64,000 nt of DNA from Escherichia coli (GTDB taxonomy: Bacteria > Pseudomonadota > Gammaproteobacteria > Enterobacterales > Enterobacteriaceae): NCBI RefSeq assembly GCF_050320075.1, contig NZ_CP190018.1. One strand, 5' to 3'. The first letter of the stretch is position 1. Every line of letters begins with the position of its first letter. Below the pieces are notes generated by a model that was given only the letters and a program-made list of their open reading frames with translations, had not been told where the DNA came from and made no database searches. This document shows, piece by piece, positions 2,647 through 59,118 of the stretch. A program made the position numbers and the translations under genes.

Positions 2647-4040
2647 CGCAATTTATCTCCTATTAAAAATTCCAGCGCAGCATCAAGGCGAATATGCGGC
2701 AGCGGTTTGTCGACATCCATCACCTGCGGACGAAACGCCTCAAACTGGAAGCCTTGCTTATCCCAGAACGCCTGACCAGGCAAACGTGCGGGAACTTCGC
2801 CAGGATAAACAGTGAGCGGTGCGCCATCACTGAGTCGATTACCGCGCAGCGCCGGGATTTTCTCACCGTTAACATCAATAATGCCGCTGGTGGTCGCCTG
2901 AACTGACGCCAGCCCCAGGCAGTCCATGCTGATCCCTTCGAACGCCGCATTTTGCCAGGCATCCTGAATTAGTTGTTGCAGTAATGAAACCATATTGGCG
3001 TGCTGATCGATGGTCACATGGTCTGCTTTAGTCGCAGCAAACAATAGCTTATCGATAACCGGCGAAAACAAACGCCGGAACAGGGTTCGCTGCCCGTAGT
3101 GGAAACTTTGCATCAGCTGCGTCAGCGCCAGACGCATATCATTAAATGCCTGTGGCCCACTGTTGAGAGGCTGCAGGCAATCCACCAGCACAATCTGGCG
3201 GTCAAAGCGCAGAAAATGATTCTTATAGAACCCCTTCACCACCTTCTCGCAATAATAATTAAAGCGCTCGCGCAGCATTCCGGCATTGGTATGCTTATCG
3301 GCCTGCGCCAGTTTGGACTCGCCCCAGGCATCGACATCCGGCCACGGGAAGAATTGCAGCGCGGGTGCTCCTGCCATATCTCCCGGCAAGACAAAGCGCC
3401 CAGGCTGAATAAAGTGCAACCCCTGCTGTTTGCAGTGGTGGAGATACTCGGTCCAGGCGGCGGCAATGTCTGCCAGCCGGTTTTCGTCGGCAGGCGCTAG
3501 CGGGTCCAGCCCTTCGCACATCATTCGCCATTTCGCCGACCATTCGCCGCGCTGACCATTGAGTAAGCCCGTCATCTGGCGCGACCAGCTTAAATAGTCC
3601 TGCGCCAGCATCGGCAGGTCGAGCAACCATTCGCCGGGGTAATCCACAATTTCCAGATACAGCGTGGAGGTGTCCTTAAAGTGGCGTAGCAGCGAATCGT
3701 TCGATTTAAAACGTAACGCCAGGCGAATTTCACTGACGCCGCGCGTAGGCGTCGGCCAGGCGGGAGGATCGCCATATAACTGCGCCAACCCTTCATCATA
3801 GGTGAAGCGCGGAATGCCAAAGTCACGCTGGGGAATGCGTTTTACGCCCAGCAGGCGCTCTTCACGCACCGCACTTAAAAGCGGCAAACGTGCTCCGGCA
3901 TGAATATTGAGCAACTGATTAACCATCGCGGTGATAAACGCTGTTTTGCCGCTGCGGCTAAGTCCGGTTACAGCGAGGCGCAGATGTCTGTCGACACCCC
4001 GATTCACCAGCGCATTAAGTTCATTTTTAAGTCGCTTCAT
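2643..4040 (-). CDS. ycjX: P-loop NTPase YcjX (DUF463)
   Basis: 465-aa ORF; Walker A motif GLSRSGKT near the N-terminus; synteny with ycjF. Confidence 0.9.
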
Positions 4041-8612: not shown

Positions 8613-8649
8613 GTTTCACACCTTTTGACTCTTCACTGTTAATCGGAAA

Positions 8650-9930
8650 TTAAACGCCCAGACGATCGCGCAGGCTGTAATAAGCCGCGCCCATCGCGGT
8701 AAACGGAACGCGCAGCGTGCGCCCGCCGGGGAACGGGTAATGCGGCAGATTGGCGAAGGCGTCGAAGCGTTCGGCGTCACCGCGCAGCAGTTCAACAATC
8801 AAACGCCCGGCAAGATGGGTACAGGTGACGCCGTGGCCGCTGTAACCCTGCATGTAATAGATGTTGGTATCAAGGCGACCGAACTGCGGCATGCGCGACA
8901 AGGTCAGCAGGAAGTTGCCCGTCCAGCGGTAATCAATTTTCACGCCCTTCAGCTGCGGGAAGGTTTTCAGCAGTTTCGGCACCACAAGGCGCTCAACGTC
9001 ATCCGGGTCGCGCGCGCCGTAGACCACACCGCCGCCGTACAGCAGGCGGTTATCGGCGGTAAGACGGTAGTAATCAAGCAGATAGTTACAGTCTTCCACA
9101 CAGTAGTTTTTCGGGATCAGCGAACGGGCTAAATCTTCCGACAGCCGTTCAGTGGTGATCACCTGCGTGCCGCACGGCATGCTGCGTTTCGCCAGTTCCG
9201 GCTCTACTTTATCGCCCAGATACGCATTCCCGGCGACAATCACATACTTCGCCGTCACCTGACCATTGGCAGTCCGCACCACGGCTGGCGTGGTGTGCTG
9301 GATCTGCGTCACGGCGGAAAGCTCATACACGCGCCCTCCGTTCAGGCGGATGGCATCGGCTTCACCAATGGCGAGGTTTAGCGGGTGAATATGCCCACCG
9401 CTGTGATCCAGAAGCGCACCAGTGTAGCGATCGCTGGCGACCTCGCGGCGAATAGCGTTGGCGTCCAGCAGCTCCAGCTGTTTATTGCCGTAGCGTTCCC
9501 AGTTCTCTTTCTGCTCTTCCAGAGTCGCGAGCTGTTTATCATTCATCGCCACAAACAGGCCGCCGGGGCGGTAGTCGCAATCAATCTGATAACGTTTGAT
9601 ACGTTCGCGGATGATCTCGCCGCCTTCGAACATCATGCTGCCGAGCATACGGGCGGTGTCCATGCCGTAGCTTTTTTCAATGACGTCGATGTCGCGGCTG
9701 TAGGAGTTCACAAGCTGCCCGCCGTTGCGTCCGCTTGCGCCGAAGCCGATGCGTGAGGCTTCAAGAACCACCACGTCAAAGCCCGCTTCCGCCAGATGCA
9801 GCGCGGAGGAAAGCCCGGTATAGCCGCCGCCGACCACGCAAACATCGCAGGAAATCGACTCATTCAGCGTGTCGAATGGTGCGTATTTATTCGCACTGGC
9901 GGCGTAATAACTGCTGGTATGTTCGGTCAT
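8650..9930 (-). CDS. puuB: Gamma-glutamylputrescine oxidase (FAD-dependent)
   Basis: 426 aa with N-terminal FAD-binding motif VCVVGGGYTGLSSA. Confidence 0.9.
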   Translation of the reverse strand: MTEHTSSYYAASANKYAPFDTLNESISCDVCVVGGGYTGLSSALHLAEAGFDVVVLEASRIGFGASGRNGGQLVNSYSRDIDVIEKSYGMDTARMLGSMMFEGGEIIRERIKRYQIDCDYRPGGLFVAMNDKQLATLEEQKENWERYGNKQLELLDANAIRREVASDRYTGALLDHSGGHIHPLNLAIGEADAIRLNGGRVYELSAVTQIQHTTPAVVRTANGQVTAKYVIVAGNAYLGDKVEPELAKRSMPCGTQVITTERLSEDLARSLIPKNYCVEDCNYLLDYYRLTADNRLLYGGGVVYGARDPDDVERLVVPKLLKTFPQLKGVKIDYRWTGNFLLTLSRMPQFGRLDTNIYYMQGYSGHGVTCTHLAGRLIVELLRGDAERFDAFANLPHYPFPGGRTLRVPFTAMGAAYYSLRDRLGV

Positions 9931-21402: not shown

Positions 21403-22209
21403 ATGATCGAAACGCTGCTTGAAGTGCGTAATTTAAGTAAAACGTTCCGCTACCGGACCGGTTGGTTTCGTCGTCAGACCGTAGAAGCGGTAAAACCCTT
21501 GAGCTTTACGCTACGTGAAGGCCAGACACTGGCGATTATTGGCGAGAATGGTTCGGGTAAATCCACGCTGGCAAAAATGCTGGCGGGAATGATAGAACCT
21601 ACCAGCGGCGAGTTATTGATTGACGATCATCCGCTGCATTTTGGCGATTATTCCTTCCGCAGTCAGCGTATTCGCATGATTTTTCAGGATCCTTCGACCT
21701 CGTTGAATCCCCGTCAACGTATCTCGCAAATCCTGGATTTTCCACTGCGTCTGAACACCGACCTGGAACCGGAACAGCGTCGCAAACAGATTATTGAAAC
21801 GATGCGTATGGTTGGGCTGCTACCGGATCACGTCAGTTACTATCCGCATATGTTGGCACCCGGGCAAAAACAGCGTCTGGGGCTGGCGCGCGCGCTGATA
21901 TTGCGCCCAAAAGTCATTATTGCCGATGAAGCCCTCGCCTCACTGGATATGTCGATGCGTTCGCAGTTGATTAATCTGATGCTTGAGTTACAGGAAAAAC
22001 AGGGCATTTCGTATATTTATGTTACCCAGCATATCGGAATGATGAAGCACATTAGCGACCAGGTGCTGGTGATGCATCAGGGCGAGGTTGTCGAGCGAGG
22101 CAGCACCGCCGATGTGCTGGCATCGCCGCTGCATGAACTCACCAAACGGCTGATCGCCGGTCATTTTGGCGAGGCATTGACGGCGGATGCGTGGCGTAAG
22201 GACCGTTAG
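21403..22209 (+). CDS. sapF: ABC transporter ATP-binding protein SapF
   Basis: 268 aa, Walker A GENGSGKST. Confidence 0.9.
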   Translation: MIETLLEVRNLSKTFRYRTGWFRRQTVEAVKPLSFTLREGQTLAIIGENGSGKSTLAKMLAGMIEPTSGELLIDDHPLHFGDYSFRSQRIRMIFQDPSTSLNPRQRISQILDFPLRLNTDLEPEQRRKQIIETMRMVGLLPDHVSYYPHMLAPGQKQRLGLARALILRPKVIIADEALASLDMSMRSQLINLMLELQEKQGISYIYVTQHIGMMKHISDQVLVMHQGEVVERGSTADVLASPLHELTKRLIAGHFGEALTADAWRKDR

Positions 22210-22216
22210 TGTTCTG

Positions 22217-22253
22217 CACCTCATCCTGACAGGGCCCCCCTCAGGATGAGGTG
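22217..22253. terminator. Bidirectional intrinsic terminator shared by sapF and the convergent MFS gene
   Basis: Perfect 13-bp inverted repeat cacctcatcctga / tcaggatgaggtg around an 11-nt GC-rich loop, lying exactly between the two convergent stop codons. Confidence 0.6.
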
Positions 22254-22257
22254 TTCA

Positions 22258-23421
22258 TTACTTTTGATTGTCGATTCTGGTGAGAGCAACCAGCAATGCC
22301 AGCGTATAACACACCGTAATTGCCAGACTCATTTTTAACAGTGTTTCTCCGCCAAACCCCGACAATGGCGCGGCTATACCGCCGAAGACAAACATGCTCA
22401 TCCCCATCAACGCAGACGCCGTTCCAGATTCCTGCGTCCCTACTCCACTCATAGCCTCTGCCCCGCCAACAGTGCCGATGCCGCTACAAAATGCAATAGT
22501 GAAAAATAATGCCACCAGTGCCGGAATGGGCAATTGTGTCCATGCGCATAAGACCGTGAGCAATGCACACAAAATTGCCGCTATCAGGCCACCTCGCAAC
22601 AATGTCATCGCGTTAATCCGTCGCGCCAGGCGCGAGAAGATCCATGAAGCAATGATAAGTCCGATGCCGTTAAGGCCAAACACCAGGCTAAATTGCATTG
22701 GACTAAAGCCAAATTCCTTCTGCAACACGAACGACGAAGAGCCGATATATGCAAACAAACCGGCCAGCATAAAACTTTGAATCAGGCAAAAGCGCATAAA
22801 ACGGCGGTTCTGCACCACGCTTCGTCCGGTTAATAGCAATGATGAGCCCCTTTTATTTTCTGGCAAGGTCTCATTAATAAATAACAGGCAGCCCAGCAAC
22901 AGTACGGTGCTAATTTCAGCCATTACCCAGAATAAAGTGCGCCAGTCAAAAGTGCTGACAATGTACCCGCCCAGCACTGGCGACAACACCGGTGCCAGGC
23001 CATTCACCGTCATTAACAGCGCAAAAAACTGGGTCAACGTTACTCCCTGATATTTGTCACGAGCAATAGAACGAGAGAGCACCGAACCACCCGCCCCCGC
23101 GATCCCTTGAATAAAACGCCAGACCACCAGCCAGTAAATATTGTTCGTTGTCGCGCACAAAATGGAAGAAACAATAAACAATAGCAACGACAAGATTAAC
23201 GGACGTTTACGCCCTATTTTGTCGCTCAGAGGGCCAAATAACAGTTGTCCGACGCCAAGACCGATCAGCGATGCGGTCAGGGTTAATTGCGTTATGGTCG
23301 TGGTTGCCGCCAGTTGCTCAGACATCTCCGGCAAAGCCGGCAAATAAAGATCGGTACACATCGGGCCGATACCGGCTAAAAGACCAAGAATCAATGCCCA
23401 TGAAAGAGAGACTCTAGCCAT
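22258..23421 (-). CDS. MFS drug:H+ antiporter, Bcr/CflA (DHA1) family
   Basis: 387-aa, ~12-TM hydrophobic ORF; N-terminal motif region (…DLYLPALP…; …GPLSDKIGRKRP…) resembles E. coli Bcr as I recall it; begins 8 nt after the OMF stop. Not part of the K-12 sapF–fabI interval as I remember it. Confidence 0.75.
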   Translation of the reverse strand: MARVSLSWALILGLLAGIGPMCTDLYLPALPEMSEQLAATTTITQLTLTASLIGLGVGQLLFGPLSDKIGRKRPLILSLLLFIVSSILCATTNNIYWLVVWRFIQGIAGAGGSVLSRSIARDKYQGVTLTQFFALLMTVNGLAPVLSPVLGGYIVSTFDWRTLFWVMAEISTVLLLGCLLFINETLPENKRGSSLLLTGRSVVQNRRFMRFCLIQSFMLAGLFAYIGSSSFVLQKEFGFSPMQFSLVFGLNGIGLIIASWIFSRLARRINAMTLLRGGLIAAILCALLTVLCAWTQLPIPALVALFFTIAFCSGIGTVGGAEAMSGVGTQESGTASALMGMSMFVFGGIAAPLSGFGGETLLKMSLAITVCYTLALLVALTRIDNQK

Positions 23422-23429
23422 ATTATTCC

Positions 23430-24803
23430 TTACTTGAGTGATGACATGCCGCCGCCCAGCGACTGCCAGAGCGTGATTCGGTTTGTAAAATCAGTCAGTT
23501 GTAGTGCCAGCAGCGCCTGCTGTGCGCTCCACAAGCTGCGCTGCGCCGTCAACACGGTCAGGTAATCACCAACACCCGCCTGATAGCGACGCAAGCCAAC
23601 ATCGACCGTTTGTTGCTCAGCTTTAACATACTGGCGCTGTGCATCCAGTTGCTCTTCAAGCGTGGTCCGCCGCGCCAGTGCGTTAGCGACATCTTTAAAT
23701 GCGCTCTGAACGGTTTTTTCATAGGTGGCAATGAGTCCACGCTTTTGTGCTTCTGCGTAACGAAGCTGCGCCAGATTACTTCCGCCAGTGAACAGCGGTA
23801 ATGTGACCGATGGCGTAAATGACCAGATCTGCATTCCGTGGCTGAACAACGACGACAATGCTTCACTGCCAACACCAGCGCTGGCAGTCAGCGAAATCGT
23901 CGGAAAAAAGTTAGCCCGCGCCGCGCCAATATCGGCATTGGCGCTCTTCAAATTATGTTCCGCTTCCTGGATATCCGGGCGACGCAGCAGAACGTCAGAT
24001 GACACTCCCGCAGGAACCAGACTTATCATCTGTTCCGGCAGGCTTTCCAGTGTTCCCGGTAGCAAATTTTCCTCAAGCGTTGTACCTGCCAGTAAGTTCA
24101 GCGCATTTTTATCCTGCATCACGTGTGTCTGATAGCTGGCAACGCTGGCGCGCGCTTGCTGATAAACACTCATCGCCTCACTGACATCTGTCGCTGCCGC
24201 CGTGCCAACCTGTTGCTGGCGCTGGATAATTTTCAATGAGTTTTCTGCACTGGCCATCGTTTCTTTTGCCAGGGCCAGGTTGCTGTTATCAGCCGCCAGT
24301 GTCAGCCAGGCGGTGCTGATTTCAGCAATCAGCGTTAAACGAGTGTTCTGGGCTGTAAATTCACTGGCAAGCCAGGTTTCCCGCGCCGCCCGAGATAAAC
24401 TCTGATTACGACCAAACAGATCTAACGTAAAACTGGACACCGTGCCGTCAGCCTCGGCAGTGGTTTCCGTACCATTCGCCAGCGAACGACTGCGGGTTGA
24501 ACTTAAGGCCGCATTCACCGTCGGGAATAACGACGCATTAGTTTGCCCATAGAGCGCCCGTGCTGAGTCAATATCAGCAATCGCTTTTTGCACATCGCGG
24601 TTACTGTTCAGTGCAATAGTCACCACCTGCTGCAATCGGGGATCGTGGATCACCTGCTGCCAGTCATGGCTGATTGCCTTTCCCTGGCCCTGTGCTCCCG
24701 GCAAGGTCGCCGGGATTGGGGATTCAGGCGTGCTGTAGTGGGGCTCGAGCGAGACACATCCCGCACTCAACAGCACCAGAAAAATAAGAGAACGACGCAA
24801 CAT
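23430..24803 (-). CDS. Outer-membrane efflux lipoprotein, OprM/NodT (TolC-superfamily) type
   Basis: 457 aa; lipoprotein signal with lipobox (MLRRSLIFLVLLSAGC); length and composition typical of OprM-type outer-membrane factors; begins 3 nt after the RND stop. Confidence 0.8.
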   Translation of the reverse strand: MLRRSLIFLVLLSAGCVSLEPHYSTPESPIPATLPGAQGQGKAISHDWQQVIHDPRLQQVVTIALNSNRDVQKAIADIDSARALYGQTNASLFPTVNAALSSTRSRSLANGTETTAEADGTVSSFTLDLFGRNQSLSRAARETWLASEFTAQNTRLTLIAEISTAWLTLAADNSNLALAKETMASAENSLKIIQRQQQVGTAAATDVSEAMSVYQQARASVASYQTHVMQDKNALNLLAGTTLEENLLPGTLESLPEQMISLVPAGVSSDVLLRRPDIQEAEHNLKSANADIGAARANFFPTISLTASAGVGSEALSSLFSHGMQIWSFTPSVTLPLFTGGSNLAQLRYAEAQKRGLIATYEKTVQSAFKDVANALARRTTLEEQLDAQRQYVKAEQQTVDVGLRRYQAGVGDYLTVLTAQRSLWSAQQALLALQLTDFTNRITLWQSLGGGMSSLK

Positions 24804-24806
24804 AAC

Positions 24807-27800
24807 TTACTCCTGACGGCGCGGTTTACCGGCAAACAAACGTTTCACCAGTACAAAAAACAGAGGAACAAAGAAAATAGCCAGCAACGTAGCGGTCAGC
24901 GTACCGCCAATAATGCCCGTACCAATGGCGATGCGGCTGTTCGCCCCTGCGCCGGTTGCTATCGCCAGCGGCATTACCCCCGCAATAAACGCCAGCGAGG
25001 TCATGATGATTGGGCGTAAACGAGTCTGCGCCGCGCGTAATGCCGCACGACTCAAGGAATAGCCCTCTGCAACCGCCGCTTCAGCAAATTCCACAATCAG
25101 AATGGCGTTTTTCGACGACAAGCCGATAGTGGTTAATAGCGCCACCTGGAAGTAAACATCGTTGTTTAAATCACGCATCCAGGCCGCCAGCGCCGCGCCA
25201 AGAAGCCCCAGAGGGATCACCAGAATGACCGAGAACGGGACTGACCAGCTTTCGTACAGTGCTGCAAGGCAGAGGAAAACCACCAGAATAGAAACTGCAT
25301 ACAGACTCAATGCCTGACCGCTGGCCAGTTTCTCCTGCAATGACAAACCACTCCAGGCCCAGGTTGTTCCCGCAGGAAGACTGTTTGCCAGTTCCTCCAT
25401 TTTTGTCATTGCATCGCCGGAACTAAAGCCAGTCGCATTTTCCCCCTGAATTTCATAGGCTGCAGAACCGTTGTAGCGCACCAGTCTTTCCGGTCCATAC
25501 AGCCAGCGGGTGGTTGCAAAAGCAGAGAATGGTGTCATGGCGTTATCGCTACCGCGCACAAACCATTTACCTAAGTCTGACGGCGTGGAACGAAATTCAC
25601 TGTCGCCCTGAATGTAGACTTTTTTCACACGACCACGGTCAATAAAGTCATTCACATAAGTACCGCCCCACGCACTGGACAGGGTGTCGGTGACATCATT
25701 CAAACTCAACCCTAATGACACCGCTTTATTACTATCAATATCTACCTGCAATTGCGGCATTTGTGGCAAATCATTGGCACGCACAGAATGTAACTCCGGA
25801 CTTTGATTCGCTTTTTCTATCAACTGATTACGCATTTGCAGTAGTGTTTCGCGATCGGTTCCACCGTTAGCTAACAATTCAAACGTAAAACCATTGCTTT
25901 GCCCCAGCCCATCAACGGCTGGCGGCGTCATCGCAAATACCGTGGCATCACGAATTGTGCCCAGCTCTTTGGTTGCCCGTAGGGCGATAGCCTGGGCGGT
26001 GTTTTCTGCCCCTTTACGTTGAGACCAGTTTTTCAACGAAACAAACGCCATCCCGGTGTTCTGTCCGCTGCCGCTAAAACTGAAACCATCAACGGTAAAA
26101 ATGACATCGGTATTTGCTTTCTCATTAATCAGGAACCAGTCAACAATCTGGCGATTCACTTCTGCTGTACGGGCAGCGGTCGCCCCGGCCGGCAGCGTGT
26201 ACTGCACCATGATTTCGCCCTGGTCTTCAGTGGGTAAGAAACTGCCCGGCAGTTTCCACATCATCAGGGCCATTCCACCACCCAGTACGACATAAAGCCC
26301 CATCGTTCGAGCAGCACGGCGCAGGACATAAATTACGCCTCGCTGATATTTATCTTCAGTACGGCGGTAAAAGCGGTTAAATGCGCCGAAAAAGCCTTTT
26401 TTATGTGGCGGAACATGCTGGAGGACGGAACCGCACAGGGCGGGAGTCAAGGTCAATGCCACTACCACGGAAAGCAGCATTGCGGAGATAATGGTTATCG
26501 AAAACTGACGATAAATTACCCCCGTAGATCCCCCAAAGAAGGCCATAGGCAGGAATACGGCTGACAACACCAGCGCAATGGCAACCAGTGCGCCAGAAAT
26601 CTCGCCCATTGATTTTTCCGTGGCTTCACGCGCGGGCAACCCTTCGTCACGCATAATACGTTCGACGTTCTCCACCACCACAATGGCATCGTCCACCAGC
26701 AAGCCGATCGCCAGCACCATTGCAAACAACGTCAGGGTATTAATCGAATAGCCAAACAACGCAAGAACGCCGAATGTGCCCAGCAAAACGACGGGGACAG
26801 CTAACGCCGGAATCAGTGTGGCACGCAGGTTTTGCAGGAATAAATACATCACGCAAACCACCAATACGATGGCTTCAAACAGCGTCTGAATTACGTCCTC
26901 TACAGAGATTTTAATAAATTCAGTGCTGTCTTTCGGGTATGCGATGTCGTATCCCTGCGGCATGTTCCGCTGGAATTCGGCAATCTTATCCTTGACCAGC
27001 GTCGCCGTATTCAGCGCATTCGCACCGGGCGAAAGCATTACAGCAACCCCGGCAGACGGGTGACCGTTAAGTTTGCCGATAGCGGTATAATCTTCACTGC
27101 CCATCTCAACGCGAGCCACATCTTTTATACGAACAACTGCGCCGTCTGACTGGCTTTTCACGATAATATTTTTGAACTGATCCACCGTCTGCAAGCGAGA
27201 CTGCGCACGTACCGTTGCGGTCAGTTGCTGAGTATTCGGTGAAGGCAATGCCCCTATTTTCCCGGCAGTAACCTGCACGTTTTGCGCTTCAATAGCACTT
27301 TGCACGTCTGAAGGCATTAGCGAGTAAGACGCCAGTTTGGCCGGGTCAAGCCAGATGCGCATAGCGTATTCCGCGCCAAAGACTTGCAGACTCCCCACAC
27401 CTTCAACACGCGCCAGCGGATCCTGAACGTTACTAACCAACCAGTCGGCGATATCCGAACTGGAGGCTTTGTCAGTGGTGTCATACACGGCAGCAATCAG
27501 CAAAAAGTTGCTTTGTGATTTCTCCACCGTAACACCCGTTTGCTGCACTTCGCTGGGTAGACGCGACTCCGCCTGCTGAATTTTATTCTGCACCTGAACC
27601 TGTGCAGTATCTGGATCGGTACCTTGTTCAAAGGTCACATTAATACTGACCGAACCATCAGAGCTGCTGGTTGAGCTGAAATAGAGTAAATTATCAAGCC
27701 CAGTGAGTTGTTGCTCGATAACCTGAGTCACGCTGTTCTCCAGCGTTTCGGCAGAAGCACCAGTATAAGTGGCTGAAATTTTAATGGTCGGTGGCGCAAC

Positions 27801-27914
27801 GTCAGGATATTGCGCGACGGGCAATGTGCGAATAGCCAGAATCCCCGCCAACATAATCAAAATGGCGATAACCCAGGCAAAGACCGGGCGGCGAACAAAA
27901 AAGCGCGAAAACAT
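24807..27914 (-). CDS. RND multidrug efflux permease, HAE1 family (AcrB/MexB-like paralog)
   Basis: 1035 aa; long blocks recognisably similar to AcrB (e.g. AVPVVLLGTFGVLALFGYSINTLT…LLVDDAIVVVENVERIM…; …LYESWSVPFSVILVIPLGLLGAALAA…); start overlaps the MFP stop by 1 nt. Confidence 0.9.
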   Translation of the reverse strand: MFSRFFVRRPVFAWVIAILIMLAGILAIRTLPVAQYPDVAPPTIKISATYTGASAETLENSVTQVIEQQLTGLDNLLYFSSTSSSDGSVSINVTFEQGTDPDTAQVQVQNKIQQAESRLPSEVQQTGVTVEKSQSNFLLIAAVYDTTDKASSSDIADWLVSNVQDPLARVEGVGSLQVFGAEYAMRIWLDPAKLASYSLMPSDVQSAIEAQNVQVTAGKIGALPSPNTQQLTATVRAQSRLQTVDQFKNIIVKSQSDGAVVRIKDVARVEMGSEDYTAIGKLNGHPSAGVAVMLSPGANALNTATLVKDKIAEFQRNMPQGYDIAYPKDSTEFIKISVEDVIQTLFEAIVLVVCVMYLFLQNLRATLIPALAVPVVLLGTFGVLALFGYSINTLTLFAMVLAIGLLVDDAIVVVENVERIMRDEGLPAREATEKSMGEISGALVAIALVLSAVFLPMAFFGGSTGVIYRQFSITIISAMLLSVVVALTLTPALCGSVLQHVPPHKKGFFGAFNRFYRRTEDKYQRGVIYVLRRAARTMGLYVVLGGGMALMMWKLPGSFLPTEDQGEIMVQYTLPAGATAARTAEVNRQIVDWFLINEKANTDVIFTVDGFSFSGSGQNTGMAFVSLKNWSQRKGAENTAQAIALRATKELGTIRDATVFAMTPPAVDGLGQSNGFTFELLANGGTDRETLLQMRNQLIEKANQSPELHSVRANDLPQMPQLQVDIDSNKAVSLGLSLNDVTDTLSSAWGGTYVNDFIDRGRVKKVYIQGDSEFRSTPSDLGKWFVRGSDNAMTPFSAFATTRWLYGPERLVRYNGSAAYEIQGENATGFSSGDAMTKMEELANSLPAGTTWAWSGLSLQEKLASGQALSLYAVSILVVFLCLAALYESWSVPFSVILVIPLGLLGAALAAWMRDLNNDVYFQVALLTTIGLSSKNAILIVEFAEAAVAEGYSLSRAALRAAQTRLRPIIMTSLAFIAGVMPLAIATGAGANSRIAIGTGIIGGTLTATLLAIFFVPLFFVLVKRLFAGKPRRQE

Positions 27915-29035
27915 CAGGCGTTGCCTCCATTAGCCTGAACTTCAACAGCCTTGACGGTCTGCCCTGAAGTGACTTTGGCAGAACCTTCAACAATCAGTCG
28001 GTCGCCGTTGTGCAGGCCGTTCAGCACCAGCCATTTATCACCATACGTTTCTCCCGTTTCGAGCGTTCGCTGCTCTACTTTATTGTCTTTATTCACCACC
28101 AGCGCAGTTGCATTGCCTTTAGCATCGCGCGTGACGCCCTGTTGCGGCGCGAGAATAGCGTCTTCCATCACGCCTTCATCGACACGAGCGCGAACAAACA
28201 TTCCCGGTAATAACTGCTGTTGTGGATTGGGGAAAATCGCCCGTAATGTCACCGAACCGGTAGACTCATCTACAGCGACTTCGGTGAGTTCCAGACGCCC
28301 TTTTTCGCTGTAGGTTGTGCCATCTTCCAGAATAAGTGAGACGCTCATGGTGTCACTGTTGGTCGCCAGTGACTGTTTACGCAGACGTAATAAATCGACA
28401 CTGGAGCGAGTGAGGTCGACATACATTGTATCCAGACCACGAACAGTCGTTAACGCTGTATCTTGCGACGCGGTCACCAGTGCGCCAGGGGTTACCGACG
28501 AAATGCCAATGCGCCCTGAAATCGGTGCGGTTACCGTGGTCCAGTCAAGATTAATGCGCGCAGTTTCCAGTGCGGCTTTTTTCGCCTCTACACTGGCTTT
28601 ATCTTGTGCACAGGTAGACTGAGCATCATCAGCATCCTGTTGTGAAACACCGTTCTCTTTCACCAGTCGGGCATAACGCTGCGCTTTCTGGCAATCGGCT
28701 TTTACCAGTGCCTGTGCTTGTTGTAATGCTGCCCGAGCTTCATTCCATGCAGCCTGATAACTGGCCGCATCAATCTGGTAGAGCGGCTGTCCAGCCTTGA
28801 CCAGATCACCTTCCTTAAATAAGCGTTTCTGGATAATTCCCCCAACCTGCGGACGTACTTCAGCACTGAGCGCAGCACTGGTGCGTCCGGTTAATTCACT
28901 GACTACCGAAACCGGTTGAGATTTGACTGTAACAACGCCGACTTCTGTTTCTGACGGGGATGAATTGTTACTTTGCGTATTATCACAACCCGATAAGAGC
29001 AGCATTGCCACTACAGATGTTGCTATATACTTCAT
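27914..29035 (-). CDS. Periplasmic adaptor (membrane-fusion protein) of the RND pump, AcrA/MexA-like lipoprotein
   Basis: Track ORF extends to 29068; the in-frame ATG at 29035 gives MKYIATSVVAMLLLSGCDN… (lipoprotein signal) with ggag 7–10 nt upstream. Confidence 0.8.
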   Translation of the reverse strand: MKYIATSVVAMLLLSGCDNTQSNNSSPSETEVGVVTVKSQPVSVVSELTGRTSAALSAEVRPQVGGIIQKRLFKEGDLVKAGQPLYQIDAASYQAAWNEARAALQQAQALVKADCQKAQRYARLVKENGVSQQDADDAQSTCAQDKASVEAKKAALETARINLDWTTVTAPISGRIGISSVTPGALVTASQDTALTTVRGLDTMYVDLTRSSVDLLRLRKQSLATNSDTMSVSLILEDGTTYSEKGRLELTEVAVDESTGSVTLRAIFPNPQQQLLPGMFVRARVDEGVMEDAILAPQQGVTRDAKGNATALVVNKDNKVEQRTLETGETYGDKWLVLNGLHNGDRLIVEGSAKVTSGQTVKAVEVQANGGNA

Positions 29036-29183
29036 TATTTTCTCCAGGGTGAGAAATACCCTCCTCATTAAAATTAATGAGGATATGTCAGGGATATTCA
29101 GTTATAACGAACCCGCATCGCGAAATGAATTTCGCAATGAAATAAGGGGGATTAATATCCCCCGCTATTGGTTAATTCTGTTC

Positions 29184-29750
29184 TTATTTATTTATCAACA
29201 TACTAACAATATCCTGATATATTTCCTGCAGATGTTGTGGATCGCTTTTTTGCGGTGTTAAACGACGATAAACCGTACCTTCCATCATGGTAGCAAACAC
29301 TTCAACGCAGCAACGAATGTGCTCGTCGCTAAGATGGGGATGCATTCTTTTCATATGTGCACAACCGTTAGCGAACATTCTGGCGTCAGCTTCTTCAAGC
29401 ATTGCCATAACCCGCGGGTTGCGTGTGGCTTCTGCAGCCACTTCCAGCATCAGCGCGTCGTCGTCCTCATTTAAGGATTTACGCAAGGCAAGGACTTCCG
29501 GGAAGTGATCGGTACGCGCGTCAATGTCCATTTGGGCAATACGAAAGTCGATGATACGGCGAACCATCTCTTCAATAATGGCATCTTTGTTGGCGAAGTA
29601 ACGATATATCTGACCCACGCTAAGCTGAGCTTCGCTGGCAATTTGCGACATACTGGCGGCATGAAACCCGCAGCGACGAAAACACCGACGGGCGGCGTTA
29701 ATGATTTCATCCTGACGCTGTTTGTGGCGTATCTCCAGTTTGCTGGTCAT
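29184..29750 (-). CDS. TetR/AcrR-family transcriptional regulator
   Basis: Track ORF extends to 29849; the in-frame ATG at 29750 (MTSKLEIRHKQRQDEIINAARRCFRRCGFHAASMSQIASEAQLSVGQIYRYFANKDAI…) places the TetR HTH signature near the N-terminus, ~188 aa. Start choice is an inference. Confidence 0.7.
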   Translation of the reverse strand: MTSKLEIRHKQRQDEIINAARRCFRRCGFHAASMSQIASEAQLSVGQIYRYFANKDAIIEEMVRRIIDFRIAQMDIDARTDHFPEVLALRKSLNEDDDALMLEVAAEATRNPRVMAMLEEADARMFANGCAHMKRMHPHLSDEHIRCCVEVFATMMEGTVYRRLTPQKSDPQHLQEIYQDIVSMLINK

Positions 29751-30227
29751 TTCTGTCTCCTGGCCTATCACTTGGTGAGAATGATCGTTCTCATTTTTGC
29801 TGATTATACGTTTCTCCAAAGTAATGGAAAGTATTTTTATCTTATTCATGGTGCATATTCTGATAATGAAGAGATTGTGGAGATTCTGTGAAGATAGTTG
29901 ACAATATTAAGTTGGGGTCAATTCATCAGAAAGGCTGCTACTTGTTGTCGCCAGTTCTGTTTTCATCATCAAACTTATCGGAGCTAATACGAATAGTTTC
30001 AGAGTCAGATTCTATAAGATATTCCCCCAACCTACCCCTTGCAGGCGTCAAGAGTAGATAACGCAAAATGCTCTGTACCTCAGCTTCTCTCCGGTACAGA
30101 AAGCGCAACTATAGCCACCCACAGCCAGGTTGATTATAATAACCGTTTATCTGTTCGTACTGTTTACTAAAACGACGAATCGCCTGATTTTCAGGCACAA
30201 CAAGCATCAACAATAAGGATTAAAGCT

Positions 30228-31016
30228 ATGGGTTTTCTTTCCGGTAAGCGCATTCTGGTAACCGGTGTTGCCAGCAAACTGTCCATCGCCTACGGTATCG
30301 CTCAGGCGATGCACCGCGAAGGAGCTGAACTGGCATTCACCTACCAGAACGACAAACTGAAAGGCCGCGTAGAAGAATTTGCCGCTCAATTGGGTTCTGA
30401 CATCGTTCTGCAGTGCGATGTTGCAGAAGATGCCAGCATCGACACCATGTTCGCTGAACTGGCGAAAGTTTGGCCGAAATTTGACGGTTTCGTACACTCT
30501 ATTGGTTTTGCACCTGGCGATCAACTGGATGGTGACTATGTTAATGCCGTTACCCGTGAAGGCTTCAAAATTGCCCACGACATCAGCTCCTACAGCTTCG
30601 TTGCAATGGCAAAAGCTTGCCGCTCCATGCTGAATCCGGGTTCTGCCCTGCTGACCCTTTCCTACCTTGGCGCTGAGCGCGCTATCCCGAACTACAACGT
30701 TATGGGTCTGGCAAAAGCGTCTCTGGAAGCAAACGTGCGCTATATGGCGAACGCGATGGGTCCGGAAGGTGTGCGTGTTAACGCCATCTCTGCGGGTCCG
30801 ATCCGTACTCTGGCGGCTTCCGGTATCAAAGACTTCCGCAAAATGCTGGCTCATTGCGAAGCCGTTACCCCGATTCGCCGTACCGTTACCATTGAAGATG
30901 TGGGTAACTCTGCGGCATTCCTGTGCTCCGATCTCTCTGCCGGTATCTCCGGTGAAGTGGTCCACGTTGACGGCGGTTTCAGCATCGCTGCAATGAACGA
31001 ACTCGAACTGAAATAA
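30228..31016 (+). CDS. fabI: Enoyl-[acyl-carrier-protein] reductase (NADH), FabI
   Basis: 262 aa, [51 protein letters not shown]…; SDR fold. Confidence 0.95.
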
Positions 31017-31159: not shown

Positions 31160-32287
31160 ATGGAACAACGCCACATCACCGGCAAAAGCCACTGGTATCA
31201 TGAAACGCAATCCAGTACTGCGGAATATGACGTTCTGCCTCTGGTCCCGGAAGCCGCAAAGGTCAGCGATCCCTTTCTGCTCGACGTGATCCTTGATGAA
31301 GAAACGCTGGCCCCCTTCCTTTCATGGCTGGTCCCTGCGCGCGTTCTTGCAGTGGAGTTGTTCCCTGACCCGCTTACCGTGACCCGTTCACAGACCTTCA
31401 CCGCTTATGAACGCTTGTCGACGGCCCTGACGGTTGCTCAGGTTTGCGGCGTCCAACGGTTATGTAACTACTATTCGGCGCGACTTACGCCGCTCCCCGG
31501 GCCTGATTCCTCCAGGGAAAGTAATCATCGGTTGGCACAAATCACGCAATATGCCCGCCAACTGGCTAGCTCGCCTTCTATTATCGACAACCGATCGCGC
31601 CAGCATCTGAATGACGTCGGTCTTACTGTCTGGGACTGTGTGATCATTAATCAAATCATTGGTTTTATTGGCTTTCAGGCGCGGACCATTGCGACATTTC
31701 AGGCTTATCTCGGGCATCCGGTACGCTGGTTACCCGGTCTGGAGATACAAAACTATGCCGACGCGTCACTGTTTGCTGATGAATCAATACGCTGGCGAAG
31801 CAGCTATGAGGTGGAAAAACTACCTGAAGAGTACACAAAAAGTTCAACTACAGAACTTTGCCAACTGGCCGAAACACTCTCTCTCCACCCTATTTCACTT
31901 TCCCTTCTCGAAAAGTTGTTAAACAGCACACGGGTTAATACACAGCCGGATAATCAGCTTGCGGCGTTGATATGCGCGCGGATAAATGGCAGTCCTGCTT
32001 GTTTTGCCGCCTGTATGGATTCATCAAATGAATATAAAAAAATCAGCCCCCTTCTGCGCAAGGGCGAAAATGAAATTAACCAATGGGCTGACCGTCATTC
32101 TGTTGAGCGCGCTACCGTTCAGGCGATACAATGGCTGACCCGAGCACCCGATCGCTTTAGCGCCGCCCAGTTCAGCCCTTTACTCGAACACGAAAAATCA
32201 TCAACGCAGATTATTAATCTGCTGGTATGGAGCGGGCTGTGTGGCTGGATAAATCGCTTAGAAATCGCGTTGGGTGAGACATATTAA
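31160..32287 (+). CDS. yciW: Putative peroxidase-related/oxidoreductase YciW
   Basis: In-frame ATG at 31160 preceded by aaggag gives 375 aa as in K-12 YciW; synteny between fabI and rnb. Confidence 0.8.
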
Positions 32288-45432: not shown

Positions 45433-45595
45433 AGCTCCTCCTTAATGACAGGGTTGCGAAGCCCTGATTCTCTTCAGGGTGAATATTAAAGATAACACAA
45501 ACATCGCGTAACGATTTGATAACAACCCAAATTGATAAAAGAGGAGAAAGCTTGTGGCAAAACAAATGAAAACCCCGCCGCAGCGGGGTCAGGGA

Positions 45596-45691
45596 TCAGT
45601 GAGTAATGATCCAGAGGAGTTCGGCCCAGAAGAGCATCGACAGAGAAAATGCGCCCATCCAGGACCAATATTTCATATTTGTGTTGATCAT
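45596..45691 (-). CDS. Candidate 31-aa hydrophobic small protein (MINTNMKYWSWMGAFSLSMLFWAELLWIITH)
   Basis: Short ORF below the track's length cut-off, found by hand in the acnA upstream region; an AAGGTG-like motif lies ~7 nt upstream; single predicted TM helix. Whether it is translated is unknown. Confidence 0.35.
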   Translation of the reverse strand: MINTNMKYWSWMGAFSLSMLFWAELLWIITH

Positions 45692-45804
45692 AGGCTACAC
45701 CTTTAACGGTTATTACTTTGTGTTGAGATAACTCAACCTGTTATTGCTGCGGTGTATTAAAAGCCCTGTAATTCATTAAAAATGGGTAATAAGAATGATG
45801 ATAA

Positions 45805-53531: not shown

Positions 53532-53592
53532 TTAATCGGTAATGGTGCCAACTTACTGATTTAGTGTATGATGGTGTTTTTGAGGTGCTCCC

Positions 53593-53868
53593 GTGGCTTC
53601 CATCTCCATCAGTTGTCCCTCCTGCTCAGCTACTGAAGGCGTGGTGCGTAACGGTAAAAGTACTGCCGGACATCAGCGCTATCTCTGCTCTCACTGCCGT
53701 AAAACATGGCAACTGCAGTTCACTTACACCGCTTCTCAACCCGGTACACACCAGAAAATCATTGATATGGCCATGAATGGTGTTGGATGCCGGGCAACCG
53801 CCCGCATTATGGGCGTTGGCCTCAACACGATTTTACGTCACTTAAAAAACTCAGGCCGCAGTCGGTAA
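53593..53868 (+). CDS. insA: IS1 InsA (transposition inhibitor / N-terminal part of the transposase)
   Basis: 91 aa, [43 protein letters not shown]…; differs at a few positions from the InsA sequence I recall (V4I, D15E). Confidence 0.9.
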
Positions 53869-54290
53869 CCTCGCGCATACAGCCGGGCAGTGATGTGATT
53901 GTCTGCGCTGAAATGGACGAACAGTGGGGCTACGTCGGTGCTAAATCACGTCAGCGCTGGCTGTTTTACGCGTATGACAGGATACGGAGGACGGTTGTGG
54001 CGCACGTCTTCGGTGAACGCACTCTGGCCACACTGGAGCGTCTTCTGAGCCTGCTGTCGGCCTTTGAGGTCGTGGTATGGATGACGGATGGCTGGCCGCT
54101 GTATGAATCCCGCCTGAAGGGAAAGCTGCACGTAATCAGCAAGCGTTACACTCAGCGCATTGAGCGACATAACCTGAATCTGAGACAACATCTGGCAAGG
54201 CTGGGACGGAAGTCACTGTCGTTCTCAAAATCGGTGGAGCTGCATGACAAAGTCATCGGGCATTATCTGAACATAAAACACTATCAGTAA
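53787..54290 (+). CDS. insB: IS1 InsB (transposase C-terminal part, expressed as an InsAB' fusion by -1 frameshift)
   Basis: 167-aa ORF in the -1 frame relative to insA; contains the A-run region where IS1 frameshifting is known to occur. Confidence 0.85.
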
Positions 54291-54358
54291 GTTGGAGTCA
54301 TTACCGCTTCAAATGAAGAAAAGGCCCCGCAGGGCCTTTATTTTATACTTATCTTAAA

Positions 54359-55234
54359 TTAACCGTTATTATTACGTCCACCAGAACGACGACCGCCGCT
54401 CACCTGACTGTGACGCTTAACCGCTCGACGAATCTGATTCGCCTTCATACGACGACGGTCTTTTTCTACAGCGACTTTAGAGCTGGTTTCTGGCGGTAGC
54501 TCCACCAGTTCGCGCAGATAGTTAGTCTGGGCGAGGTCCAGCTCCGTCCAGCCACCGCGTGGCAGACCTTTCGGCAGTGGGATATCACCGTAACGAACAC
54601 GGATCAGGCGGCTTACCTGCACACCAACCGCTTCCCAAAGACGACGAACTTCACGGTTACGGCCTTCGGTCAGAGTAACGTTGTACCACTGGTTGATCCC
54701 TTCGCCGCCGCTGAACTTGATGGTTTTAAAGGCTGCCGGACCATCTTCCAACTGCACGCCACGACTCAAATCACGCAGTTTCGCGTCGTCAACCTGACCA
54801 AATACACGCACGGCATATTCACGTTCAACTTCACGGCTTGGATGCATTAAGCGGTTTGCCAGTTCACCGTCGGTGGTAAACAGCAGCAGACCGCAGGTAT
54901 TAACGTCCAGACGACCCACGGCAATCCAGCGCGCACCGCGCAGCTTTGGCAGACGGTCAAACACCGTTGGACGCCCTTCCGGATCGTTACGGGTACACAA
55001 CTCACCTTCCGGTTTGTAATAGGCCAGAACGCGACAAATTTGTTCAGCGGACTCACGTACCGAAATAAGGTGACCATCGATACGGATTTTCAATCCAGGG
55101 GTAACTTCAACGCGATCGCCGAGTTTAGCAATTTTGCCATCAACACTCACACGACCGGCTTCAATAATAGATTCGATTTCACGGCGAGAACCGTGGCCGG
55201 CACGCGCCAGCACTTTCTGTAGCTTTTCGCTCAT
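54359..55234 (-). CDS. rluB: 23S rRNA pseudouridine(2605) synthase RluB
   Basis: The in-frame start [34 protein letters not shown]… gives 291 aa; S4 domain plus RsuA-family catalytic domain; Arg/Gly-rich C-terminus. Confidence 0.9.
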
Positions 55235-59003: not shown

Positions 59004-59048
59004 ATGAAAGCAATTTTCGTACTGAAAGGTTGGTGGCGCACTTCCTGA
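59004..59048 (+). CDS. trpL: trp operon leader peptide
   Basis: atgaaagcaattttcgtactgaaaggttggtggcgcacttcctga encodes [14 protein letters not shown] with the tandem Trp codons. Confidence 0.9.
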
Positions 59049-59089
59049 AACGGGCAGTGTATTCACCATGCGTAAAGCAATCAGATACC

Positions 59090-59118
59090 CAGCCCGCCTA
59101 ATGAGCGGGCTTTTTTTT
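59090..59118 (+). terminator. trp attenuator (3:4 terminator hairpin plus U-run)
   Basis: cagcccgcctaatgagcgggc followed by tttttttt, ~20 nt upstream of trpE. Confidence 0.9.

Follow-up and report, generated by a model that had tools for sequence, protein, structure and literature searches.

What is the five-gene efflux locus that lies between sapF and fabI in this strain of Escherichia coli, and how did it come to occupy a site where K-12 carries ycjD? The window, a 64,000-nucleotide stretch of DNA, had been described in a first-pass annotation as holding a TetR – MFP – AcrB-like RND – OprM-like OMF – Bcr-like MFS array, which was implied to be new and was said to be of unknown substrate range and regulation. 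To judge from its sequence, the locus is E. coli's chromosomal eefRABCD operon, which is already known. The best explanation as a whole, combining this identity with the mechanism set out below and with vertical inheritance at the sapF–fabI site, is given a probability of about 0.93.

The eefRABCD locus and its pump proteins

ORF calls and RefSeq annotation, the latter taken from record NZ_CP042899.1, which is 100% identical to the window, placed five intact genes at 22258–29750 on the minus strand. Their order between sapF and fabI is eefR-A-B-C-D, and their orientation is opposite to that of the flanks.

21403..22209, plus strand: sapF, conserved left flank (RefSeq annotation of the identical record)
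22217..22253: inverted repeat CACCTCATCCTGA...TCAGGATGAGGTG in the gap where sapF and eefD converge, read from the sequence
22258..23421, minus strand: eefD, MFS exporter (DHA1, Bcr/CflA family), 387 aa
23430..24803, minus strand: eefC, outer-membrane factor lipoprotein, NodT/OprM type, 457 aa
24807..27914, minus strand: eefB, RND (HAE-1) inner-membrane proton antiporter, 1035 aa
27914..29035, minus strand: eefA, periplasmic adaptor lipoprotein, 373 aa
29184..29750, minus strand: eefR, TetR-family repressor, 188 aa (RefSeq start)
30228..31016, plus strand: fabI, conserved right flank

The four pump genes are tightly packed, with a 1-nt overlap of eefA and eefB (TGATG) and gaps of 3 nt between eefB and eefC and 8 nt between eefC and eefD, while eefR is separated from eefA by 148 nt. 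The gene order proposed from the sequence was confirmed by the ORFs, the annotation and the HMMs, and the proposed spacing of the pump genes (overlapping or at most 8 nt apart) also held. The repeat at 22217..22253 is a candidate terminator shared by sapF and eefD; part of it was listed by a scan for terminator-like structures, and the stem CACCTCATTCTGA is present in the K-12-type allele too, about 25 nt farther from sapF. Searching the window against Rfam gave only STnc180 and the trp leader, with no match in the eef region.

The eef operon was placed at sapF–fabI by Pugh et al. 2026, in phylogroups B2, D, E, F and G and not in A, B1 or C (PMC12817139). The site, gene order, protein lengths, quoted residues and EefR operator of the window are all like those of the published E. 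coli operon (ATCC 25922, SMS-3-5, ATCC 35218), and all 20 of the 20 EefA, EefB and EefC residues quoted in PMC12817139 are present at the quoted positions. There is no difference of substance, and the window strain is one more carrier. The first-pass annotation had itself allowed that the genes might prove to be a described and named E. coli efflux operon, and this is what they are (PMC12817139, PMC12482432), so that the implied novelty falls away. The window strain is identical to CFSAN061763, which originated from raw-milk cheese.

The pump proteins were assigned with NCBIfam HMMs, at scores well above anything that chance would give. EefB scored 1553.6 bits against TIGR00915 (cut-off 940) and 1501.6 against NF000282 (cut-off 1250), making it an RND HAE-1 multidrug permease. 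Its scores against the AcrB model (1379.7, cut-off 2150) and the AcrD model (1409.3, cut-off 1854) did not reach the equivalog level, indicating that EefB is a paralog and neither AcrB nor AcrD; the earlier description of the RND protein as a distinct AcrB paralog was therefore right. AcrB and MexB are its best relatives of solved structure, and the proton relay is intact, with D408, D409, K935 and T972 at the published positions. EefA is an RND adaptor (TIGR01730, 274.4, cut-off 94.9) with AcrA and MexA as best solved relatives. Its residues R120, R123, L124, V125, S131, D134, D136 and Q221 match the published numbering, R120, L124 and S131 belonging to the RLS motif of RND adaptors, and its lipobox is intact (LLSG-C17). 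A longer, 384-aa eefA ORF (to 29068) was rejected because the start at 29035, unlike the in-frame ATG upstream of it at 29068, is kept across genera, and because of the position of the ribosome-binding site. EefC is a NodT outer-membrane factor (TIGR01845, 372.3, cut-off 210) whose best solved relative is OprM (E 8e-101); D206, G412, L415, T416, L418 and T419 match the published numbering, and the lipobox is intact (LSAG-C16). EefD falls in the Bcr/CflA subfamily (TIGR00710, 280 bits, cut-off 200.9), lies below the equivalog cut-offs for TcaB (315.6, cut-off 475) and Bcr (227.3, cut-off 303), and is closest among solved structures to EmrD and MdfA.

In the proposed mechanism, EefB would work in the inner membrane as a proton-driven RND transporter, with EefA as its lipoprotein adaptor and EefC as an OprM-type outer-membrane channel. 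The EefABC tripartite pump would move amphiphilic compounds from the periplasm or the inner-membrane leaflet to the outside, while EefD, as a Bcr/CflA-type MFS exporter, would carry its substrates through the inner membrane. The tripartite architecture and the proton-relay residues are common to EefABC, AcrAB-TolC and MexAB-OprM. However, eef has a linked OprM-type channel of its own, whereas the TolC used by AcrAB is unlinked, and it differs from both systems in its linked MFS pump and in having another TetR repressor and operator.

EefR, its operator and the role of the operon

EefR belongs to the TetR family, as indicated by PF00440 on all of its close homologs, by N-terminal matches to TetR structures and by its operator. 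It reaches no NCBIfam equivalog; among solved structures it comes nearest to UidR/GusR (E 1.4e-12, 51 bits), with most of the match in the DNA-binding domain. AGGAG is found 7 nt upstream of the eefR ATG, and the length of 188 aa is also given in PMC12482432. A 221-aa ORF (to 29849) was rejected, since promoter position, ribosome-binding site and cross-genus conservation favour 188 aa; the candidate eefR promoter lies inside the extension of the longer ORF, which argues for the 188-aa start.

29776..29793: EefR operator, palindrome TGAGAACGATCATTCTCA, identical to the site validated by EMSA in PMC12482432
29803..29830, minus strand: candidate eefR promoter, TTTCCA-16 nt-TATAAT (10/12 matches in a consensus scan, a consensus match only)

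In the operator search of the window, 0.09 chance matches were expected at one mismatch or fewer. Among the eefRAB-carrying loci checked, all 12 have the operator 20–34 nt upstream of eefR; in Erwinia the distance is 70 nt. In the window the candidate promoter ends 9 nt upstream of the operator. A second operator-like site upstream of eefA (29050–29067, one mismatch) was rejected as functional because it is kept in no other species and because its fragment failed EMSA competition for EefR.

Shen et al. 2025 reported that EefR represses the operon through the same palindrome, with evidence from EMSA, a GFP reporter and RT-PCR across the gene junctions, and that point mutations in eefR raise eefA-D expression 27- to 83-fold (PMC12482432). 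In the proposed mechanism an EefR dimer binds just downstream of the −10 site of the promoter before eefR and keeps the five-gene transcript nearly silent, so that loss of EefR function turns the pumps on. Repression, co-transcription and efflux were demonstrated in ATCC 35218 and ATCC 25922 (PMC12482432, PMC12817139), and the identity of sequence leads us to expect the same in the window strain.

When EefABC or EefD was overexpressed in acrB-null cells, the MICs of several drugs rose, namely those of sanguinarine, tetracycline, erythromycin, chloramphenicol, clindamycin and fusidic acid (PMC12482432). The regulation and substrates that had been taken as unknown are thus in print: repressor, operator, co-transcription and the substrates seen on overexpression (PMC12482432). 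Ethidium and rhodamine 6G are also effluxed (PMC12817139). The two studies disagree on substrates, Pugh et al. finding antibiotic MICs unchanged on deletion or on uninduced pET expression (PMC12817139) and Shen et al. finding 8- to 32-fold MIC changes with the pBR322 tet promoter (PMC12482432).

A reading that we rate at somewhat below even odds is that the operon was selected to export a putative compound, host-derived or endogenous, while the bacterium colonises the gut or extra-intestinal sites, drug efflux being a side activity seen on artificial overexpression only. The unchanged antibiotic MICs of the ATCC 25922 deletion (PMC12817139) and the strong repression of the operon in culture (PMC12482432) are consistent with this, as are a conservation of eef comparable to that of acrAB-tolC, the conservation of regulator and operator across genera, and the poorer gut colonisation of K. 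pneumoniae eefA mutants, as cited in PMC12817139. The nearest characterised relative of EefR, UidR, is a glucuronide sensor and points the same way, but the similarity is weak and lies mostly in the DNA-binding domain. The proposal is about physiology and is compatible with the mechanism proposed above, not opposed to it.

The spacer between eefR and eefA

The 148 nt between the repressor gene and the first pump gene are structured.

29036..29183, minus strand: structured eefR–eefA spacer with three hairpins, H1, H2 and H3
29146–29163: H1, terminator-like, a GC stem and then a U-run, immediately behind the eefR stop codon
29117–29138: H2, spacer hairpin
29062–29083: H3, just upstream of the eefA ribosome-binding site

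The fold of the spacer has a z-score of −3.8, and none of 200 shuffled sequences was equally stable. The three-hairpin layout recurs, built from other sequences, in Enterobacter, Cronobacter, Kluyvera and Dryocola. In the hairpins 92.6% of cells were paired, compared with about 50% in slid controls, and both sides had changed in 17 of the 25 spacer pairs. These compensatory changes extend over at least five genera and are accompanied by G-U pairs of the sense strand. The element is mentioned in neither PMC12817139 nor PMC12482432. The role that we infer for the hairpins is a tentative one: the spacer might be a conserved RNA element on the eef transcript that sets how much transcription or translation continues past eefR to the pump genes. 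H1 might then be a leaky terminator, and H2 and H3 might determine processing or stability, or form an attenuator that responds to a ligand or a condition, a possibility that we likewise hold at well under even odds.

The position of H1 right after eefR fits a simple single transcript less easily. It could mean that eefR and eefABCD are transcribed as separate units, eefR ending at H1 and a second promoter lying in the spacer. The GC-rich stem and U-run, kept in position after the eefR stop across genera with compensatory changes, are what this arrangement would predict, and the length of the spacer stands out against pump genes that overlap or nearly touch. However, RT-PCR spans the eefR–eefA junction, and the eefR point mutations lift expression of all four pump genes (PMC12482432); together, the RT-PCR product and the derepression of eefA indicate read-through past H1. 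Furthermore, the 148-bp spacer fragment was not bound by EefR and served as the non-specific competitor (PMC12482432), and a consensus scan of the spacer gave no good sigma-70 match. We consider separate units unlikely, and transcription of the five genes from the promoter before eefR remains the preferred reading.

Inheritance at the sapF–fabI site

The full eef locus is present in 2037 of 5426 complete E. coli genomes (about 38%), and the window copy is 98–100% identical to these in nucleotide sequence. K-12 thus under-represents the efflux repertoire of E. coli, since these genomes hold a seventh RND pump that can be switched on by a single eefR mutation. The arrangement sapF-eefRABCD-fabI is also found in E. 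albertii, E. whittamii, the cryptic-clade Escherichia sp. MOD1-EC7003 and a divergent 'E. coli'. Nucleotide identity is 88–95% in the eef genes and 87–97% in five of the six flanking core genes, with yciW lower (78–94%). GC is 0.49–0.54 across the pump genes, and GC and GC3 are like those of the neighbours, so the base composition is E. coli-like, as had been judged by eye. At the eef junctions no integrase, transposase, tRNA or direct repeats were found, and the locus holds no mobility genes.

The earlier statement that K-12 has ycjD alone at this site was correct, the layout in MG1655 being sapF-ycjD-fabI.

22223..30104: alternating segment, 7882 bp, with a K-12-type counterpart of 652 bp (the K-12-type interval compared with the window by BLAST, plus junction alignments)

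Homology with K-12-type strains extends to window position 22222, and on the other side a promoter-like site of fabI (30112–30140) begins 8 nt inside the shared sequence. The K-12-type interval was depicted in PMC12817139 as aligning in 'fragments'. In our BLAST comparison (word size 7) the K-12-type sapF–fabI interval held no eef remnant better than E 0.65 besides the shared flanks and one short hairpin stem, so the ycjD segment was treated as unrelated sequence and not as a deletion scar. The K-12 state is, on this alignment evidence, a replacement by an unrelated 652-bp ycjD segment rather than a plain deletion. E. ruysiae carries ycjD at the same site, and ycjD is an old alternative allele there; eef and ycjD are two unrelated alleles that persist at one site across Escherichia species. 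Homologs of ycjD (DUF559) in Enterobacter and Klebsiella lie at unrelated sites and so do not settle the polarity between ycjD and eef.

The suggestion of the first-pass annotation that the locus is ancestral in Escherichia and was lost in K-12 is supported by its presence at the same site, with flank-like divergence, in E. albertii, E. whittamii and the cryptic clade, and probably holds. Since eef is absent from E. fergusonii and E. ruysiae, an ancestral origin needs several losses or allele replacements. We infer the direction of change as follows: eef would have passed vertically at sapF–fabI within Escherichia, and in the lineage containing K-12 it would have been swapped for the unrelated ycjD segment.

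Pugh et al. raised lateral transfer because the proteins resemble Pseudomonas Mex/Opr systems (PMC12817139). The cassette occupies unrelated chromosomal sites in Enterobacter, Cronobacter, Kosakonia, Kluyvera, Dryocola and K. aerogenes and is plasmid-borne in a few E. coli (7 plasmid places found; five strains in PMC12482432), which indicates that it has moved on long time scales. That it is a recently acquired genomic island of pathogenic lineages is nevertheless very improbable, given the single site within Escherichia with clean junctions, the match of GC and GC3 to the flanks, a divergence from E. albertii (88–92% nt) equal to that of sapC, sapD, sapF and rnb (87–90%), and closest relatives that are enterobacterial and not from Pseudomonas. 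Vertical inheritance within Escherichia is therefore retained.

A scan of genome contigs with exact peptide words missed Klebsiella and Enterobacter, whose cassettes were found instead through EefR homologs. The cassettes of Klebsiella (Enterobacter) aerogenes, Enterobacter, Kluyvera, Kosakonia and Cronobacter are collinear (eefR-A-B-C(-D)) and have the same operator upstream of eefR, with identities to the window of 84–89% for EefB, 75–79% for EefA, 74–77% for EefC, 59–69% for EefR and 65–68% for EefD. They differ from E. coli in chromosomal location, and those of Cronobacter and Dryocola are without eefD. H-NS silencing has been reported for the K. aerogenes operon.

The additions made here to the published work are small: ycjD as an old allele, the spacer hairpins and a reduced pair of genes in Erwiniaceae. 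The spacer and this pair are cheap leads on the natural substrate, the EefR inducer and the persistence of the two alleles. In three Erwiniaceae genomes (Erwinia persicina, E. toletana and Pantoea sp.) only an eefR-eefD-like TetR–MFS pair is found, with no RND, adaptor or channel genes. Its regulator is about 59–64% identical to EefR, and in E. persicina the MFS protein shares 47% identity with EefD, and upstream there is a copy of the operator with one mismatch. The TetR and MFS genes of the pair overlap, and their site, between an osmE-like gene and nadE, is fixed.

Gene content of the sapF-fabI interval and the published operon

The window carries five intact genes between sapF and fabI, an interval that in MG1655 has the order sapF-ycjD-fabI. 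The features are as follows:

21403-22209, plus strand, sapF, the left flank
22258-23421, minus strand, MFS transporter gene (eefD), intact
23430-24803, minus strand, outer-membrane factor gene (eefC), intact
24807-27914, minus strand, RND permease gene (eefB), intact
27914-29035, minus strand, periplasmic adaptor gene (eefA), intact
29184-29750, minus strand, TetR regulator gene (eefR), intact
30228-31016, plus strand, fabI, the right flank

The adaptor and RND genes share 1 base, gaps of 3 and 8 nt follow at the next two junctions, and 148 nt separate the regulator and adaptor genes. E. coli CFSAN061763 is 100% identical to the window across the sapF-fabI stretch, and its RefSeq annotation holds the same five genes, with the shorter start chosen for both the adaptor and the regulator. 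The first-pass annotation had described a five-gene, minus-strand efflux locus where K-12 has ycjD, and the ORFs, RefSeq and MG1655 bear this out in every detail.

Families were assigned with NCBIfam models at their curated cut-offs. The RND permease scored 1553.6 against TIGR00915 (cut-off 940), the NodT-type channel 372 (210), the RND adaptor 274 (95) and the Bcr/CflA MFS protein 280 (201). The RND protein scored below the NCBIfam equivalog cut-offs of both AcrB and AcrD, indicating a distinct paralog. The closest solved structures for the five proteins were AcrB/MexB, OprM, AcrA/MexA, EmrD/MdfA and UidR. The proton-relay residues are intact, and the lipoprotein signal cysteine is present in both lipoproteins.

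This locus has been published before. Pugh et al. (Microbial Genomics 2026, preprint 2024; PMC12817139) described precisely this operon of five genes between sapF and fabI under the name eefRABCD, and found it in phylogroups B2, D, E, F and G but not in A, B1 and C, which have ycjD instead; the EefA, EefB and EefC residues quoted there are all at the same positions in the window proteins. Shen et al. (Virulence 2025; PMC12482432) reported that EefR, of 188 aa, binds the palindrome TGAGAACGATCATTCTCA 5′ of eefR, that all five genes lie on one co-transcript, and that eefA-D expression goes up 27- to 83-fold when EefR is lost. Overexpression of EefABC or EefD in an acrB-null host increased the MICs of sanguinarine, tetracycline and erythromycin, as well as those of chloramphenicol, clindamycin and fusidic acid (PMC12482432). 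The description in the first-pass annotation stands and its novelty does not, because an operon already described and named, with known substrates (PMC12817139, PMC12482432), is what that annotation itself had said would count against it. The best supported mechanism is one in which EefR represses a normally silent tripartite RND pump together with an MFS pump. PMC12817139 and PMC12482432 conflict on antibiotics as substrates, most likely owing to expression level (uninduced pET in MG1655 versus the tet promoter of pBR322).

An exact copy of TGAGAACGATCATTCTCA is found in the window at 29776-29793; a promoter match (TTTCCA-16-TATAAT) ends 9 nt before it, and the eefR ATG follows 26 nt downstream. 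At 29050-29067, 14 nt ahead of the eefA start, lies a copy with one mismatch, TGAGGAGGGTATTTCTCA on the eef strand; it has no conserved counterpart in other species, and falls within the fragment that served as non-specific competitor in EMSA (PMC12482432).

Ancestry of the eef and ycjD alleles

Among 5426 complete E. coli genomes, 2037 carried the full locus (at least 80% of a 9.7-kb query) and essentially all of the others matched the flanks only, with ycjD; seven places were plasmid-borne. This carriage pattern agrees with PMC12817139 and PMC12482432.

Species-representative genomes were scanned with EefB and then searched by tblastn with all neighbours. Four Escherichia genomes (E. albertii, E. 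whittamii, Escherichia sp. MOD1-EC7003 and a divergent genome labelled E. coli) hold eefRABCD at sapF-fabI, with eef genes 88-95% identical in nucleotides to the window. Of the six core genes in the flanks, five (sapC, sapD, sapF, fabI and rnb) are 87-97% identical in the same comparison; the sixth, yciW, is lower at 78-94%. The GC and GC3 of the eef genes resemble those of the flanking genes, and no mobility genes or repeats were found at the junctions of the eef segment. The common site, flank-like divergence and composition, and clean junctions support vertical descent, which would date from before the E. albertii split. The earlier suggestion of an ancestral locus lost in K-12 gains support from the shared site and the divergence.

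The K-12 state, in which 652 bp take the place of the 7882-bp eef segment, is not a simple deletion, since these 652 bp (3825-4476 of L002, a K-12-type E. coli) have no significant similarity to the eef segment. The sole piece common to both is a hairpin stem adjoining sapF. This stem, CACCTCATYCTGA / TCAGRATGAGGTG, is seen in both alleles (window 22217-22253; L002 ~3836-3878), but its loops differ and its position is shifted by 25 nt, placing the left breakpoint within or beside the hairpin. The ycjD allele is also old, because E. ruysiae holds ycjD at the same site (L046 6001-6363) with 93% nucleotide identity, compared with 91% for sapF and 96% for fabI. From these comparisons, eef and ycjD appear to be old alternatives at one site, not a parent allele and its deletion form, and look like a long-standing pair exchangeable via the conserved flanks.

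Beyond Escherichia, EefR homologs with 59-72% identity occur widely across Enterobacterales, and the eef cassettes are collinear but at unrelated chromosomal sites. Enterobacter hormaechei, Kosakonia, Kluyvera intermedia and one genome labelled Salmonella have eefRABCD; Cronobacter and Dryocola have eefRABC without eefD; and in K. aerogenes eefR, eefA and eefB are followed by the start of eefC, where the contig ends. Identity of EefB across the cassettes is 84-89%, and the EefR operator is conserved 5′ of eefR in every one. In Erwinia persicina (L056 10001-11772), Pantoea sp. (L059 6001-7772) and Erwinia toletana (L060 6001-7772), an EefR-like gene overlaps a downstream MFS gene, whose product shares 47% identity with EefD in E. 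persicina. In all three genomes the pair lies at one fixed position, flanked by an osmE-like gene and nadE, with no RND genes beside it. These three genomes suggest that regulator and MFS gene may be the older unit, with eefABC nested inside.

Conserved hairpins in the eefR-eefA spacer

The 148-nt spacer (29036-29183, minus strand) folds into three hairpins:

29146-29163, minus strand, H1, a GC stem with a U-run, immediately past the eefR stop codon
29117-29138, minus strand, H2, part of the spacer fold
29062-29083, minus strand, H3, just upstream of the eefA ribosome-binding site

The fold was more stable than 200 of 200 shuffles (z −3.8), and matching spacers from five other genera gave z of −2.1 to −3.7. 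A covariance model built on four Escherichia sequences matched Cronobacter, Enterobacter, Kluyvera and Dryocola with E of 3e-7 to 4e-4, and K. aerogenes weakly. In the alignment obtained with this model, 92.6% of cells were paired, versus 44-57% with slid partners, and both sides had changed in 17 of 25 pairs, including 9/9 in H2. These figures call for caution, as the alignment was fitted to the model and comprises only nine sequences. Compensatory changes appear to preserve the three hairpins in Enterobacter, Cronobacter, Kluyvera and Dryocola. Pairing at the RNA level, as opposed to a DNA palindrome, is favoured by fourteen G-U cells on the sense strand. We hypothesize that H1 is a terminator, read as leaky because RT-PCR and mutant data show read-through, and that H2 and H3 may be stability or processing elements. 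Neither PMC12817139 nor PMC12482432 mentions a spacer terminator or hairpin.

In Escherichia sp. MOD1-EC7003, a 124-nt insertion (L003 ~8620-8745) separates the eefR stop codon from H1. This insertion may resemble an ERIC/IRU repeat.

Other features of the window

YciW (31160-32287) has 77-80% amino acid identity between the window and E. albertii, E. whittamii and the divergent 'E. coli', while the adjacent FabI and Rnb reach 97-99% identity in the same comparisons; yciW thus appears unusually fast-evolving or recombining. An IS1 copy is inserted at ~53535-54306, between cobO and rluB, an insertion common to only 15 of the 5426 complete genomes; the ORFs at this place (53547-53855 and 53866-54867) are 'hypothetical protein' in RefSeq. 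Rfam matches were the STnc180 sRNA (45562-45764, minus strand) and the trp operon leader (59025-59118, plus strand), both ordinary for that region.
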